From a virus: 64,000 nt of DNA. How positions within the stretch are numbered: the first letter of the stretch is position 1; each line of letters begins with the position of its first letter. Location: positions 1 through 64,000 of the IMG/VR virus record IMGVR_UViG_3300033977_000098. One strand, given 5' to 3'. The notes below the pieces were generated by a model that saw only the letters and a list, made by a program, of their open reading frames with translations, was not told the origin of the DNA and ran no database searches. A program made the translations under genes and the position numbers. This document shows positions 17,630 through 22,823 of this stretch, piece after piece.

Positions 17630-20600
17630 TCACCCGGCTTCGGGCGCTTTTTGTCCAATCATGCTGGCAGGGCCCTGCTCGATTACGCCCGCGTCATTGA
17701 TGAACACATGCGCGCCACGAATGGTCACCCAGCCCTTGCCCAAGGCTTTGTTGAAACTGACCGCAATGACGGCGCAATCGCAGTTCTTGACCACAATACC
17801 GCCTATGTTGTATATATGAGAAGTGGTGGATGCGTCAAAAGCCCAGCCATGAAATCGCCCAACTTGAGTCTGAAGAATTCGCGCCGCCTTAAAGAACGGT
17901 GGTCCCGGTTCACAGCAGAGCAGCGCAAGATCATCCTGGCACCCGCTCACGCCGCTGCCAGCGTTGCCAACAGGGCTCGCATGAAAGAATTTTGGCGCAC
18001 TGCTACGCTCAGCCAACGTCGAAAGATGCTTGAACCTGCCCACGCTGCTGCGCGCGGTCGCAAAGAACGCCTGGAATCCAAGTTGGCACGTGCCGCAACT
18101 CGCTACATGCGCGCCGTCGGGATAGGCCCCCGAGAGCGGGCATTTGCAAAGATGCTCAAGTTCGCTGGAATCAAGTTCCGACAGCAAACTCCTTGCGGGC
18201 CTTACAGCTTGGACTTCACCATAGACGAAAGTTTCGTCGCCGTGGAAATACGAACGGGGAGCAGCAACAAACGAGTAGCCAAAGCGGCCGCGCAGAGACT
18301 CAAAAGCGTCCTGGATCAATGGCACCTGTTCGAGGTTCGGTTCCATAGCGGGCATCCTCGCCGATTCCATGCGCATGTCATAAAGCAACTCGTCACCTTT
18401 CTTCAGTTCGTGCGCAAACAAGAAACCACGGCAGGTCAACATTGGGTGGTTAGGCCCGATGGTCAGTTTTATCCGTTCCGAGCCTATGGGCCGCGTAGGC
18501 CAGCCGTGATCACCAGGGAGCAATTGGCGCTCGTCGAGCGCCTCTTTAAGCTTAACGTCTCGTTGCGGAACATCCGTCGTGAAACTGGAGTAGCTCGGCG
18601 ACGACTGCCCGCAGTTCTCAGCCAACTCCAGCTCCAGCGCAATCGCGGGGCCGTGGTATGGCGCACCAAGCATTTGCTGAAGTCTGCCATAGGGCGCAAA
18701 AACTGAGCCTTCAAATACCGCGTTGGGATGTGCCGGGGGGGCCTCTACGTCCACGCCAGGGAAGGTTTCGCCTAGCGAAACGACCTCTCCATTCGCATCC
18801 TTACAGTCATCGCACGTGTTGGGCTCAACCGAAGTCTGCCATTGAAGTTTTTTTACTACCCCGCTGTCTTTCCAGACATCATAGTTCGCGTGGCATTGGG
18901 CGCGTGCGACCTCGGTGCGGGCAATCATCTCGGCGCGGGAATCAGAGAACGCGCCCGCCTCGCGGATTTGCTCGATAAGGTCGGGCATTGGAGTTTCTTT
19001 GCCGAAAGCATCCGTCACGATGCTGCGGAGATCGTCCCGCGTGGTATCACTGATGGCCCACTTCGCGTCGGCATTCTCGACGAACGTCCCATCTTCCAGT
19101 TTGTGCATTCCCACCAGTTCGGCCGCGCGTTCATCCGCCCAATCTTGTGCGCCTTGGTTCAGGGCAGAGATCATGTCGTCGTCCGTCAAGTCCAGTTCAG
19201 CTACACCTTTCCCGATGCCTGCGAACGCGGCGTGTCGCAGCGGGGGCGCTGCCTCCATTGGGATCTCGCCGAAAAGTTCCTGAAGCGCCTCGAAAATCGC
19301 ATCTGCGATGTTGATGGCGTCATCGTCCTGCTTAGCCAAATCGAACTCCTCGATTTTCTTTTTTCCATTCTTAAAGGGGATAGTGCGGATGCGCTCGAAA
19401 TCATCCGGGTCCGCCTGGCGCGCCCGATAACTGGAATCTGTTTCCTGAATCTCCGTTTTGAAGTCATGGTCCTTCAGCCATGCGCGCACATCTTCTTTTG
19501 TCCACGCATCCTTCGGCATGAAGAGGATCGACTGCGCCTCTGTCCGCCCACCTTCCGGACCCTTTTCGGAAGGCTTGCGAACGCCCACCGTTGCCGAAAT
19601 GCGCCGCGCCGCTTTCCCGAAGCCATCCACAATCAGGGCGTGCACCATCTCATCATGGACCTTCAGCAAGCGGTCAGCCTTTTCCTTGGCGCGGTCGCGC
19701 TGCCGGCGAAAAACTTTCTTGATAATTTCTGCCAGCTCGCGCTCCGCTTCCTGGAGGGCGGGCGTGGAATGCGAGGGGTCGATTTTGATGTTGGCCGCCT
19801 TCGCTAGTGGCAGGGAGCGGCTCTTAGTGGAAACGCTTGGTGCTTTGTCAATTAACTCGTCGCACGTCCCGCACTTGAATTGGCGCACTTGCTCATCGGC
19901 TGGCCCGAAATCGTTGCAGCAGCCCAGCTCCTTTGAGACACCACCTTTGACATAGACGGTTTTGCAATCGGCGTCTTTGACGGCACCTGGGAACTCCATG
20001 TACCCGGCGTCTTCTTCAGGCTTGCGAGAATCGCGTTTGAGAATCGTAAGCGTCTGCGCGCCACCAGTGGCTTTCCAATACGGTTGGAAATTCTTGACCG
20101 CCTCGATGAATTCCGGCGTCCACTCGCCCAGGAACTGGGTGGCTTTGTCGTCCACAAACTCGTGCGCCATGACCGGCTTGACGTTCGTGATGTCCAGTAC
20201 GTAGGCGCTCGCCTTGTTTTGTTGCAGCGCCACCCACACGGGTCCGAAGTCTGTCCGCGCTGTGAAGATCAAGATATCAAAATCCTTAGACAACTCCCGC
20301 AGGGCGTCCACGGCGCCGTCGATAAACTCCGTGATCGCCGTCGGGTCGTCGGGGTCGCCGACTTGAATGGTGGAATCGAAGTCGAGGCAGAGAAGGGGCT
20401 TTTGCAGCAAATCGGTTAGCGCCTTGACGAGTTCGCGCTCATAGGCGGCTGTCGGCATTTGCTGCAAGCCTTCATGTTTCACATAAACATTAGCATTGCT
20501 CAACTCCGTTGGCAAATCCTCTTCCACGATAAGGCTGTCCGACGCGATGGCAATGCCATCGGCCCGCACCAATAAGTTGGCGAGGTTGGTAAGTGTGTTC

Positions 20601-20797
20601 CGCACATCAGCGCTCACGTTGCCCTGCGCCGCAAACAGCGCCGCCTTGCGTAACGCTTCAGGGTCCGTGCTGTACCCCTGGTCGCAGAACTTCTGTAGTT
20701 CGCTGGGCCCCTCGCCAACCGCCGCGCAGAGGTCAGACCAGCCTCTACCTGAAGCCAGCGGACCTACGTAGTCAGTGCCGAACAATGATATACTCAT
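17630..20797 (-). CDS. Multidomain MuF/gpF head morphogenesis protein with a HAD domain and an intein
   Basis: SRAEMIARTE, W..CDDC, PPAHPN/CDC; DFDST..FTAR..VDDK HAD; GAGGTG SD before ATG 20797. Confidence 0.85.
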   Translation of the reverse strand: MSISLFGTDYVGPLASGRGWSDLCAAVGEGPSELQKFCDQGYSTDPEALRKAALFAAQGNVSADVRNTLTNLANLLVRADGIAIASDSLIVEEDLPTELSNANVYVKHEGLQQMPTAAYERELVKALTDLLQKPLLCLDFDSTIQVGDPDDPTAITEFIDGAVDALRELSKDFDILIFTARTDFGPVWVALQQNKASAYVLDITNVKPVMAHEFVDDKATQFLGEWTPEFIEAVKNFQPYWKATGGAQTLTILKRDSRKPEEDAGYMEFPGAVKDADCKTVYVKGGVSKELGCCNDFGPADEQVRQFKCGTCDELIDKAPSVSTKSRSLPLAKAANIKIDPSHSTPALQEAERELAEIIKKVFRRQRDRAKEKADRLLKVHDEMVHALIVDGFGKAARRISATVGVRKPSEKGPEGGRTEAQSILFMPKDAWTKEDVRAWLKDHDFKTEIQETDSSYRARQADPDDFERIRTIPFKNGKKKIEEFDLAKQDDDAINIADAIFEALQELFGEIPMEAAPPLRHAAFAGIGKGVAELDLTDDDMISALNQGAQDWADERAAELVGMHKLEDGTFVENADAKWAISDTTRDDLRSIVTDAFGKETPMPDLIEQIREAGAFSDSRAEMIARTEVARAQCHANYDVWKDSGVVKKLQWQTSVEPNTCDDCKDANGEVVSLGETFPGVDVEAPPAHPNAVFEGSVFAPYGRLQQMLGAPYHGPAIALELELAENCGQSSPSYSSFTTDVPQRDVKLKEALDERQLLPGDHGWPTRPIGSERIKLTIGPNHPMLTCRGFLFAHELKKGDELLYDMRMESARMPAMEPNLEQVPLIQDAFESLRGRFGYSFVAAPRSYFHGDETFVYGEVQAVRPARSLLSELDSSELEHLCKCPLSGAYPDGAHVASCGTCQLGFQAFFATARSSVGRFKHLSTLAERSSAPKFFHASPVGNAGSGVSGCQDDLALLCCEPGPPFFKAARILQTQVGRFHGWAFDASTTSHIYNIGGIVVKNCDCAVIAVSFNKALGKGWVTIRGAHVFINDAGVIEQGPASMIGQKAPEAG
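17783..18721 (-). mobile_element. Intein in MuF (313 aa, Ala start, ends KN/C)
   Basis: Removal restores PPAHPN-CDC; blocks AVFEGS, LTIGPNHPMLTCRGF..A.EL..GD, AFDAST, VVKN. Confidence 0.8.
17849..18706 (+). CDS. Antisense nested Vsr/DUF559-like endonuclease with repeats and an HTH
   Basis: E..FAKML..GIKFRQQ..GPYSLDF..FVAVEI; duplicated W....QR....PAHAAA; C-terminal HTH. Confidence 0.7.
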   Translation: MKSPNLSLKNSRRLKERWSRFTAEQRKIILAPAHAAASVANRARMKEFWRTATLSQRRKMLEPAHAAARGRKERLESKLARAATRYMRAVGIGPRERAFAKMLKFAGIKFRQQTPCGPYSLDFTIDESFVAVEIRTGSSNKRVAKAAAQRLKSVLDQWHLFEVRFHSGHPRRFHAHVIKQLVTFLQFVRKQETTAGQHWVVRPDGQFYPFRAYGPRRPAVITREQLALVERLFKLNVSLRNIRRETGVARRRLPAVLSQLQLQRNRGAVVWRTKHLLKSAIGRKN

Positions 20798-21409
20798 CGG
20801 TATCCACCTCATCGACCTTACTGGACAGCGGTTTGGTAAGCTCGTCGTTCTGCGACGGAGCCCGAAGCTGGTAGCGTATGGTTCGCTTTGGGAGTGTCTC
20901 TGTGACCATCGTCTCCATCCTCTTGGATGCCTCGGCAGGCCATAAACCTGGAAGATGCGAACCACAGTTATTTCCGTGCGCCTAATACGCTTAGCAACCT
21001 GCTTCAACGTGAGACCCGCCATGTAGAGCTGGTGCATCGGCCGCACGACCTCGATGGGCCACAACGTTGTGCGGCGGCGATTCAGGCGCGGACCGCGCGA
21101 GCCAGTCGGACGTCTCTCTACGCCGAATCGCCGCAATGCATACAAAATCGCAGTATGATGGACGCCATACCGGTCCGCAAGCTGGTGAAGCGTCCAACCT
21201 TTCCGGTAAAGCTGCGCGCATTCCTGTAACGGCACTGTGGCGTGAAACGGGCGTATGGGAAAGCCGTTGCGCGCGAAGAGCTGACGGACCCGTTCGCGGG
21301 ACAGGCCGATGCGCCGCGCCACTTCCGCGACCGTGAGCCCTGCGACGTGAAGCCGATGCAGCTTTCGGATGTGCTCTGTGGTCCATCTTCGAGCATGTTC
21401 ACTTCGCAT
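20798..21409 (-). CDS. Triple-HTH DNA-binding module, in frame with MuF and with no stop between them
   Basis: Three repeats of LY..G.T...VA.R.G. Confidence 0.6.
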
Positions 21410-22823
21410 CGGGATTCTCCAAAAAGCTACCATCATCAAGTTTGTGTAGAGCAAACGGCGATGTGATTTTGCTGATAAATGCCCGAAGCTGCTTGAGGTT
21501 TTTGAGCGGGGTCATCTGCCCTATTCGGAACGCCCCCATGCCTTCGTGCACGAATATCTTTTCACCCCCCCCTCGGTTGTCGATGAGTACGCAATAGCCT
21601 TTCGCACGATTCTGCGTCAGGTCTTCTAGCTTTCTCTCTCGGCATTCTGGCCGCATGTTGATGCGCACGTTCGTCAGCTTCTTGCCCAACAGCGTCTTGA
21701 CCTCAAGCCCGACCTTACCGCCCCCGGCGCGCACGTAGATATCGAGGGGGGAATTGTCTGGTGTGCGCTCACCGCCTACCGCCTCCGCAACGCGCTGTTC
21801 GTTCGCATCCGCCTTGCGCTGGTGCGCCTTCAAGGCCGGCTTGAAGTTCTTAAGCGCGGCCGTGCACTTGTCGGCAACCAGCGAGCCATCTGGCTTGAGC
21901 TGGTGGCCTACCATGCTGTGGGGGCCGTGCGTGATGCGCCCAGCCTCGTCGATAAACACGTGGGCACCGCGGATCGTGACCCAGCCTTTACTAACTGGTT
22001 GCGGCGCCGCGCCCTCTGTCCATCGTCCGTGCTCATCACGCGGCTGGTCCGGCGAATACTTGCTCAAGCTTTCCCACGCTGTTAACGCCTTGTTCACGCC
22101 GAAGCGTGCGCCAATAGCGTCGCGCCGGCCGATGAGCGCGTTCGCGTATTTCCCGGACAGCCCAGCTTCGTTCACTAGCTCGCGGATCGTGTCGTCATCA
22201 AGGGTGGCGACGAGGTGTTGCGCCTGGGCTTGCAATTCGTCATCAGTGAACCCCGCAAATATTGGTGCCGCATCAGGCGCCGTTTCCCGGTCCCGCATTG
22301 AATCAATCTCCGGGACTATTATTGCTGAAACGTCCTTATCCTGGCCTTGGGCTCGGAACGCGAACGTGCTTCCATTGTCGATGCGCAGATCGCGGCCATC
22401 AACACGTAGGATATTGCGGCCGCTGCTGCCGATGACATCGTGGTTAGCAAGGAGACAATCTGTAAGAAACCCGTCGCGCACGTCGGGGCTTTCGGCCAGT
22501 TCGTCACTGTCCAACTGTTCGCCTTCGACCATCTTGCCCGCGATGCCCAGGCCGCTCGCCTCGCCCCACCCGGCGTGGCCGGAAACGAGCTGCTTCTCTG
22601 GGACCGGCAATCCTACCGTGCGGTAAACCAGCGTCGCCAATAGTTCGGCGCGAGATTGCTCAGGGTCAAGCTGAGGGAACTTGACGTACCACTGCTGTCC
22701 GCTCTCGTCCTCGTAGACGCCGCCAGGATTTGAGCCTTTGTGCTGGCTGACGTGCCACCAGGAAGCAATGGACTCAGGTGCGCTCGCCTTGGTGAGCGTT
22801 CCGGCAATGAGAGAAGCGTCCAA
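21399..22823 (-). CDS. HipA/PI3K-like kinase + MuF-type linker motifs + PD-(D/E)xK nuclease
   Basis: GSNPGG..YVKF, AELLA, LANHDVIG..NIL..RIDNG; YSPDQPRDEHGRWT; PLDIYV..GLEVKT. Confidence 0.75.
   Translation of the reverse strand: MDASLIAGTLTKASAPESIASWWHVSQHKGSNPGGVYEDESGQQWYVKFPQLDPEQSRAELLATLVYRTVGLPVPEKQLVSGHAGWGEASGLGIAGKMVEGEQLDSDELAESPDVRDGFLTDCLLANHDVIGSSGRNILRVDGRDLRIDNGSTFAFRAQGQDKDVSAIIVPEIDSMRDRETAPDAAPIFAGFTDDELQAQAQHLVATLDDDTIRELVNEAGLSGKYANALIGRRDAIGARFGVNKALTAWESLSKYSPDQPRDEHGRWTEGAAPQPVSKGWVTIRGAHVFIDEAGRITHGPHSMVGHQLKPDGSLVADKCTAALKNFKPALKAHQRKADANEQRVAEAVGGERTPDNSPLDIYVRAGGGKVGLEVKTLLGKKLTNVRINMRPECRERKLEDLTQNRAKGYCVLIDNRGGGEKIFVHEGMGAFRIGQMTPLKNLKQLRAFISKITSPFALHKLDDGSFLENPDAK

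Follow-up and report, generated by a model that had tools for sequence, protein, structure and literature searches.

Purifying selection on both strands of a phage MuF intein with a putative Vsr-like nuclease gene on its opposite strand

The window analyzed in this study is a stretch of 64,000 nucleotides, positions 1 to 64,000 of the 74.6-kb uncultured virus record IMGVR_UViG_3300033977_000098. In this window, the gene for a MuF-like head-morphogenesis (minor capsid) protein is interrupted by an intein, and an open reading frame (ORF) of 285 codons, whose product resembles homing endonucleases, runs on the opposite strand wholly inside the intein. Neither frame is interrupted, purifying selection acts on both, and a Hint fold and a Vsr-like fold are predicted for the respective products. 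We thus regard the locus as a two-gene selfish element that uses both strands of ~860 bases, namely a minus-strand MuF intein and a plus-strand gene for a Vsr-like nuclease with a helix-turn-helix (HTH) domain, and we assign a probability of roughly 0.8 to this reading. The layout is already published: antisense VSR-like endonucleases in full inteins, with minor capsid proteins among the hosts, were reported in a survey of actinophage inteins by the Gogarten laboratory (bioRxiv 10.1101/2025.01.02.630785). The window is therefore a further example and not a new kind, and the novelty implied in the initial annotation of this DNA does not stand. What is added here is a host breadth well beyond actinophages, quantitative evidence of selection, and the recognition of doubly constrained codons in block B and in an HGD motif of the intein frame.

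An intein in a MuF gene and a reading frame on its opposite strand

The MuF ORF (17630-21454, minus strand) stays open straight through the insert. The Pfam domain Phage_Mu_F (PF04233) was detected at residues 814-911 of the ORF with an E-value of 1e-11, and the match ends with the motif PPAHPN. The gene itself is placed at 17630..20797 on the minus strand, with the stop codon at 17630-17632. Its start near 20797 (MSISLF...) was set by the alignment with the intein-less relative P0021, in which the BLASTP match begins from residue 220 of the ORF. The insert of 313 residues (17783-18721, minus strand) lies exactly between HPN and CDC, begins with Ala1 and ends with Lys-Asn followed by Cys+1; it was identified as an intein by end-to-end homologues, the Hint-like model and the empty allele in P0021. 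The uninterrupted sequence of this close MuF relative reads ...PPAHVN-CDCSMIAVSF..., and its C-extein is 78% identical to that of the window. As the MuF protein of P0021 carries no insert, an intein-less version of the site does exist.

That the plus strand is coding in this region was first suggested by the AT skew, the sign of which changes across 17750-18350. The antisense ORF (17849..18706, plus strand) extends from ATG to TGA in exact codon register with the minus strand, as the two sets of boundaries share the same residue modulo 3. The initial annotation had described both the split PPAHPN-CDC motif with its Hint-bearing insert and the antisense ORF enclosed by the intein, and both were recovered with the same boundaries and lengths.

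Selection on both reading frames

The same MuF site carries homologous inserts of 198-313 residues in 20 database proteins and 46 viral loci. The former are MuF, portal-MuF and polyvalent ART/Nudix/topoisomerase fusion proteins, in which the insert lies between HP(N/R) and C.C and is homologous end to end. The latter are the further loci recovered by a scan of viral contigs, which yielded 34 non-redundant inteins with the window's own counted. In each of the 46 loci, the antisense frame that is in register remains free of stops over 194-310 codons and matches the ORF of the window, usually with a score above that of the intein reading. The check for stop codons in homologues, on which the initial annotation had made its proposal depend, thus left both frames open in 46/46 related loci.

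A stop-poor antisense frame could in principle be a mere shadow of a real intein, with the likeness to nucleases arising by chance, and GC-rich DNA indeed makes in-register antisense frames poor in stops. The codons that create an antisense stop (TTA, CTA, and TCA) account for 339 of the 15,999 extein codons (2.1%), but rise to ~7% in the loci of 44-47% GC. Inside the 34 inteins, such codons are confined to the termini, namely the initial ~33 or the final ~25 codons, and none occurs in the cores. The antisense frame is open in 34/34 loci, including those of 44-47% GC in which antisense-stop codons make up 5-7% of the extein codons. When codons were resampled synonymously with the intein protein kept, an antisense identity of 0.187 was expected, against 0.363 observed, and ~227 stops were created. 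With the antisense protein kept instead, the intein-frame identity was 0.314 observed against 0.200 expected, and ~177 stops were created. Each frame is conserved well above the shadow cast by the other, in agreement with the dual-coding reading put forward in the initial annotation.

The excess of the observed over the expected identity was distributed unevenly along the element. In the Hint blocks (intein residues 1-30, 98-117, and 284-313), the excess was +0.12 to +0.31 in the intein frame and ~0 to +0.11 in the antisense frame. Opposite the nuclease and its N-terminal module (residues 128-157 and 178-273), the intein frame showed ~0.01 to 0.13 and the antisense frame +0.09 to +0.30. Two short stretches are constrained in both frames, namely block B (residues 88-97; +0.37 in the intein frame and +0.17 in the antisense frame) and the region around the HGD motif (residues 158-177; +0.15 to +0.31 and +0.23 to +0.36, respectively). 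The null model can be considered calibrated, because the unselected frame lies near zero at residues 1-30 and 284-313 and, reciprocally, at 178-273, which serves as an internal control.

The periodicity of substitutions follows the same regions. Position 3 of the intein codons is the most variable in the Hint parts (0.66 vs 0.48), while position 1, which corresponds to the wobble position of the antisense codons, is the most variable in the nuclease parts (0.64 vs 0.51). In the doubly constrained stretches, variability is low at both wobble positions. In the codon table, Thr299, taken as a control, uses all four codons, and the antisense Glu and Asp opposite intein codons 159 and 170 are present in 34/34 loci with a free wobble position. 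An insert of 55 residues between blocks A and B is limited to the subfamily of eight members to which the window belongs; its identity in the antisense frame reaches 0.429 where the null gives 0.184, and variability peaks at the antisense wobble position. This insert thus evolves as an antisense-coded HTH sequence. The initial annotation had already matched the insert to the antisense HTH and noticed that the ORF reads through block B, and both points hold.

Altogether, the open frames, the resampling, the regional pattern of selection and the switch of the wobble periodicity to the antisense strand led us to reject the shadow explanation. In its favor, there are also the marginal Pfam match to DUF559 and a word-index search that returned no relatives. 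On the other hand, a confidently predicted Vsr-like fold, relatives with genuine HTH domains and a conserved Shine-Dalgarno sequence in the close relatives (see below for the details) oppose it, and we give it next to no weight.

The intein and its predicted splicing

The intein frame starts with AVFEGS, contains block B (TIGPNHPMLT) and block F (AFDAST), and ends with VVKN before Cys+1. Ala1 (replaced by Cys or Ser in some members), Thr87, His92 of block B, Asp296, Thr299, Tyr304, Asn313, and Cys+1 are invariant or nearly so among the homologues. His92 and Asn313 are strictly invariant and Cys+1 is nearly so; the block B His, the C-terminal Asn and the +1 nucleophile expected of an intein are therefore all present. 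In the AlphaFold2 model, the pLDDT score (predicted local distance difference test) exceeds 90 at residues 1-30, 81-120, and 280-313 and falls below 50 at residues 41-80. The model aligned with the splicing domain of the Mtu RecA intein with a Z-score of 11.8 and a root-mean-square deviation of 1.7 Å over 107 residues (VIA-align), in line with the Hint assignment of the initial annotation. In total, 57 chains reached a Z-score of at least 5, and the 47 listed (Z>=5.7) are all inteins, BIL or Hedgehog Hint domains. Neither the model of the intein nor that of the antisense protein obtained strong E-values in Foldseek, and the clear Z-scores came from re-scoring with VIA-align.

The N-terminal splicing region with block A (residues 1-30; 18632..18721, minus strand) has a pLDDT above 90 and an intein-frame excess of +0.19 to +0.25, with ~0 in the antisense frame. 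The insert between blocks A and B (residues 31-86; 18464..18631, minus strand) reads as filler in the intein frame opposite the antisense HTH and includes the segment of low pLDDT; the window has this extra insert because the antisense protein carries an HTH at its C-terminus. Block B with the invariant His92 and the Hint strands that follow (residues 87-117; 18371..18463, minus strand) are modeled with a pLDDT of ~90, and codons 88-97 therein are those constrained in both frames. The C-terminal splicing region with blocks F and G, including Asp296, Thr299, and Asn313 (residues 284-313; 17783..17872, minus strand), shows an excess of +0.12 to +0.31 in the intein frame and ~0.01 in the antisense frame.

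Class 1 features, i.e., Cys, Ser, or Thr at residue 1 and a penultimate His, are replaced by Ala1 and Lys312 in the window. The triad of class 3 inteins consists of Trp at B:12, Cys at F:4, and Thr at G:5; the corresponding positions here are Met, Val, or Ile at B:12, Asp296 at F:4, and Val at G:5. In class 2 (KlbA-like) inteins, residue 1 is Ala and Cys+1 attacks the N-terminal junction directly; the window has Ala1, Cys+1, and an Asp in block F, and the structural alignment with KlbA gave a Z-score of 8.5. Class 2 inteins with Ala1, such as Mja KlbA, are known to splice. Separately, when loci L034-L046 were set against the window and L001-L031, we noticed that a single intein family spans members of class 1-like appearance with Cys1 or a penultimate His and members with Ala1, in which the terminal Asn is preceded by Lys, Ser, Ala, or Gln. 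Judged from the sequences, this distribution suggests that the splicing chemistry changed within the family.

The insert might alternatively be a Hint-derived module that stays in MuF or performs only C-terminal cleavage, its frame being kept open merely for the sake of MuF. Ala1, the penultimate Lys, and the lack of both a block-F Cys and the usual block-F His fit such a non-splicing insert, and no Hint or intein match for the insert was found in Pfam or NCBIfam. Nevertheless, selection on blocks A, B, F, and G acts in the intein frame only, and His92, Asp296, Thr299, Asn313, and Cys+1 are invariant across relatives that are ~30% identical to each other. Besides, the insert splits the most conserved motif of MuF, where 313 unspliced residues would probably disrupt the protein, relatives of the same family possess Cys1 and a penultimate His, and class 2 inteins set a precedent for splicing with Ala1. 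We therefore consider a non-splicing insert quite improbable and favor a splicing intein, although its competence to splice is not assured, since Ala1, the penultimate Lys and the missing block-F His are non-canonical.

The initial annotation regarded the central part of the intein as filler. Most of it is indeed predicted to be an unstructured linker, but this description fails for the HGD motif at residues 160-162 (18236..18244, minus strand), which is invariant and under intein-frame selection. Its nine bases hardly vary and lie opposite the V-A-V of the VAVE strand of the nuclease. Across the 34 loci, the His is found in 34/34 (as CAC in 32), the Gly in 33/34 (always GGC), and the Asp in 34/34. 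The usual block-F His and the penultimate His are absent in most of the family. One possibility is that HGD supplies, from a new position, a His for Asn cyclization in place of the missing ones; another is that it serves as a latch docking the linker onto the Hint core. Whether HGD is a working part of the intein, so that the intein and the nuclease have co-evolved into an obligate pair with double-coded catalytic residues, is a tentative proposal that we hold to be rather doubtful. If true, the double-coded pairs would be HGD opposite the VAVE strand and TIGPNHP of block B opposite G.H/Y.VIR.DG of the nuclease, and the nuclease family of ~650 clusters would occur only inside these inteins, in phages of Proteobacteria and Actinobacteria.

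The antisense protein

Although a word-index protein search returned no relative of the antisense protein, an exhaustive phmmer search found 657 cluster representatives with E<=1e-3, 102 of them with E<=1e-10; the top match is 48% identical. Many of these relatives contain independently significant Pfam HTH domains (HTH_58 at 1e-10, HTH_7, and HTH_23). The match of the antisense protein itself to DUF559 (PF04480) is marginal (21.2 bits against a cut-off of 20.6; E 2.8e-4), and that to PRK09767 of NCBIfam has an E-value of 4.7e-5. The AlphaFold2 model has a mean pLDDT of 86, and a confident Vsr-type fold is predicted where the initial annotation had asked for a nuclease fold.

Three parts can be distinguished in the protein, all anticipated in the initial annotation. 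The N-terminal module (...KE.W..T..QR..L.PAHAAA; 17876..18052, plus strand) is duplicated in tandem with the copies 31 codons apart, and the duplication is real, as a BLASTP comparison of the halves gave 15/28 identical residues with an E-value of 5e-8. The module is single-copy in the relatives. The central part (residues 90-209; 18116..18475, plus strand) is a putative Vsr-like, PD-(D/E)xK-derived nuclease core, delimited by VIA-align, profile matches and invariant columns. This part of the model aligned with Vsr (1cw0) at a Z-score of 11.6, with the DUF559 protein 3hrl at 11.2 (23% identity), and with I-Bth0305I (3r3p) at 10.6, and the profile of the nuclease family matched the PDB sequences of 3hrl and 3r3p with E-values of 5e-6 and 8.5e-4, respectively. 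The C-terminal part (residues 223-278; 18515..18682, plus strand) is predicted to be an HTH module, with model helices at 223-234 and 239-246, similarity to the HTH of DesR (Z 6.0) and of the Tc3 transposase (Z 4.8), and conservation in the subfamily.

The motif E.DG..H of DUF559 following the third strand is not present, the window having VEIRTGSS and the family AVE..G.GN. The replacement of DG..H by RTG, raised as a caveat in the initial annotation, is thus there, but it reflects a trait of the whole family rather than a defect specific to this copy. Glu96, Gln113, Tyr119, Asp122, Glu133, and Arg150, which are conserved in the family, are all kept in the window.

Expression signals and the proposed propagation

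In the five closest relatives (L001-L005), a near-perfect, conserved AAGGAGG precedes the antisense ATG by 4-5 nucleotides, and this ATG lies opposite intein codon 254 (235 in L004). L012 and L008 have weaker sites of a related kind, at codons 259 and 203, respectively. The stretch AAGGAGGT, which serves the antisense gene as its Shine-Dalgarno sequence, encodes Lys-Thr-Ser-Phe in the intein frame, immediately ahead of block F. The ribosome-binding site is thus embedded in the coding sequence of the other strand, and the window copy either lost it or never had it.

We propose that the intein, located at the conserved HPN-C.C site of MuF, would splice out after translation and restore MuF. The route would probably be class 2-like with a direct attack of Cys+1 on the upstream junction, because residue 1 is Ala and no Cys is available in block F, while Cys+1 is present. 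The plus strand would encode a free-standing protein composed of the Vsr-like nuclease core and the HTH, the expression of which would presumably be uncoupled from that of the late gene. During co-infection, this protein would act as a site-specific nuclease and cut intein-less MuF alleles near the sequence coding for HPN-C.C, and the repair of the cut allele would copy the element in (homing), so that the intein and the nuclease would travel as a single element. In such an arrangement, the stretch of the intein frame facing the nuclease and the HTH would be mostly an unstructured linker that needs only to stay free of stops, and the part of the nuclease frame that faces blocks A, F, and G would be unconstrained or outside the ORF.

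Several observations weigh against the selfish element proposed above. The ATG at 17849 of the window, which abuts block F, has no Shine-Dalgarno sequence, a signal that many genes in this phage do possess, and no in-frame start with such a sequence was found for the antisense ORF in the window. A promoter scan detected no sigma-70-like site, and terminator-like matches remained at the chance level. The nuclease family lacks the active-site His of Vsr/DUF559, and the window has Ser at position 120, where 90% of the relatives have Asn. On the intein side, the residues are non-canonical as described above. Some groups of VSR-like inteins look vertically inherited (bioRxiv 10.1101/2025.01.02.630785). 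The transcription and translation of the antisense gene, the cleavage specificity of its product, the splicing competence of the intein, and the current mobility of the window copy are what we infer.

These points lend some credit to the alternative that the antisense gene encodes a real protein which is no longer a homing nuclease, being for instance a DNA-binding protein only or a decaying one, in an intein that is inherited vertically. The missing Shine-Dalgarno sequence and promoter, the duplicated N-terminal module, the change of Asn120 to Ser, the loss of the catalytic His in the family and the vertical appearance of some VSR-like groups are all compatible with such a relic or domesticated gene. 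Glu96, Gln113, Asp122, Glu133, and Arg150 are retained in the window, however, the ORF is intact over 285 codons, purifying selection is strong throughout the family, and the intein-less allele in a close relative implies a gain or a loss of the element. We thus judge a relic unlikely and prefer an element that encodes an active homing nuclease.

Comparison with known systems

A tblastn search against GenBank phages found the arrangement in 32 records, i.e., Rhodococcus phage REQ3, 14 Pseudomonas aeruginosa phages, eight Klebsiella phages, Cronobacter phage ES2, and seven records of four Gordonia phages. Both frames are open in Rhodococcus phage REQ3 (L048), Pseudomonas phage vB_Pae_BR313c (L049), Klebsiella phage RCIP0054 (L050), and Gordonia phage Fosterous (L051). 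In the GenBank entries of these four, the match lies opposite one annotated coding sequence for a minor capsid, MuF or hypothetical protein, and no antisense gene is annotated; the matches in the Cronobacter and the remaining phage records also fall under genes for MuF-type or hypothetical proteins. The insert-bearing MuF proteins are therefore mis-sized in the annotation. The four phages, being cultured and sequenced and carrying the intein with the nested antisense nuclease, are ready experimental systems.

The preprint on actinophage inteins names an intein of 225 residues in the REQ3 minor capsid protein and reports structural matches of the endonuclease to 1CW0 (Z 10.6) and, by HHpred, to 3R3P (bioRxiv 10.1101/2025.01.02.630785). 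The same two structures were matched by the antisense protein of the window. In both phages, a contiguous intein of a MuF-type minor capsid protein contains an antisense VSR-like ORF, and the two loci are related with 41.5% identity and an E-value of 6e-27 in tblastn. As the REQ3 locus is a direct homologue, the element in the window is a case of the published layout. The window differs from REQ3 in being a contig of an uncultured phage, in the length of the intein (313 residues against 225), in the C-terminal HTH and in the duplicated N-terminal module. According to the preprint, the secondary ORFs are usually located outside the splicing domain, whereas that of the window runs opposite block B and nearly to block A. 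REQ3 is listed as class 3 in the preprint, but the Trp-Cys-Thr triad is absent in both REQ3 and the window.

Vsr-like homing-endonuclease genes between the halves of split inteins, termed 'fractured genes', were described by Dassa et al. (2009; PMC2677866), with no antisense case. The element in the window shares with them the phage setting and a Vsr-like endonuclease that forms a gene of its own where the endonuclease domain of an intein would sit. In contrast to the fractured genes, the host frame of the window is continuous, with a single ORF through the intein, and the gene for the endonuclease overlaps this ORF on the antisense strand. Antisense LAGLIDADG endonucleases are known from inteins of Synechocystis dnaX and a Chloroflexus SpoVR-like protein (Gorbalenya 1998 and Gogarten 2002, as cited in bioRxiv 10.1101/2025.01.02.630785), and the dnaX case is treated in a preprint of 2026 (bioRxiv 10.64898/2026.09.14.751524). 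These inteins and that of the window are alike in having the endonuclease out of frame or antisense in a contiguous intein, but differ in the nuclease family and the host genes. As for the nuclease, I-Bth0305I (EDxHD; 3R3P; PMC3239194) and the DUF559/Vsr proteins (3HRL and 1CW0) resemble the antisense protein in the catalytic fold and at the profile level. I-Bth0305I is a group I intron endonuclease, unlike the intein-nested nuclease of the window, and the active-site make-up differs between the antisense family (AVE..G.GN) and DUF559 (E.DG..H).

The locus clearly exemplifies long sense/antisense double coding in phage DNA, over ~860 bases, with a measurable strand-by-strand map of selection. 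It also indicates that a free-standing homing endonuclease can reside in an intein with the host frame left intact; such a contiguous arrangement offers an alternative to the fractured gene with a split intein.

Region upstream of the MuF gene

P0021, the closest intein-less homologue of the MuF protein, carries a PI3/PI4-kinase domain of Pfam (PF00454) on the same polypeptide as MuF; the initial annotation placed the kinase of the window in a separate upstream gene. Between the start of MuF and the upstream limit of the ORF (20798-21454, minus strand), ~219 codons of HTH repeats continue without a stop, matching HTH_23 (3.4e-9) and Sigma70_r4 (4.9e-8) of Pfam. One of the repeats is similar to the N-terminal HTH of the antisense nuclease family (hhalign probability 93.6%, E 2e-7). 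This stretch could be a separate gene for a DNA-binding protein, or else what is left of an endonuclease gene that stood free upstream of MuF.

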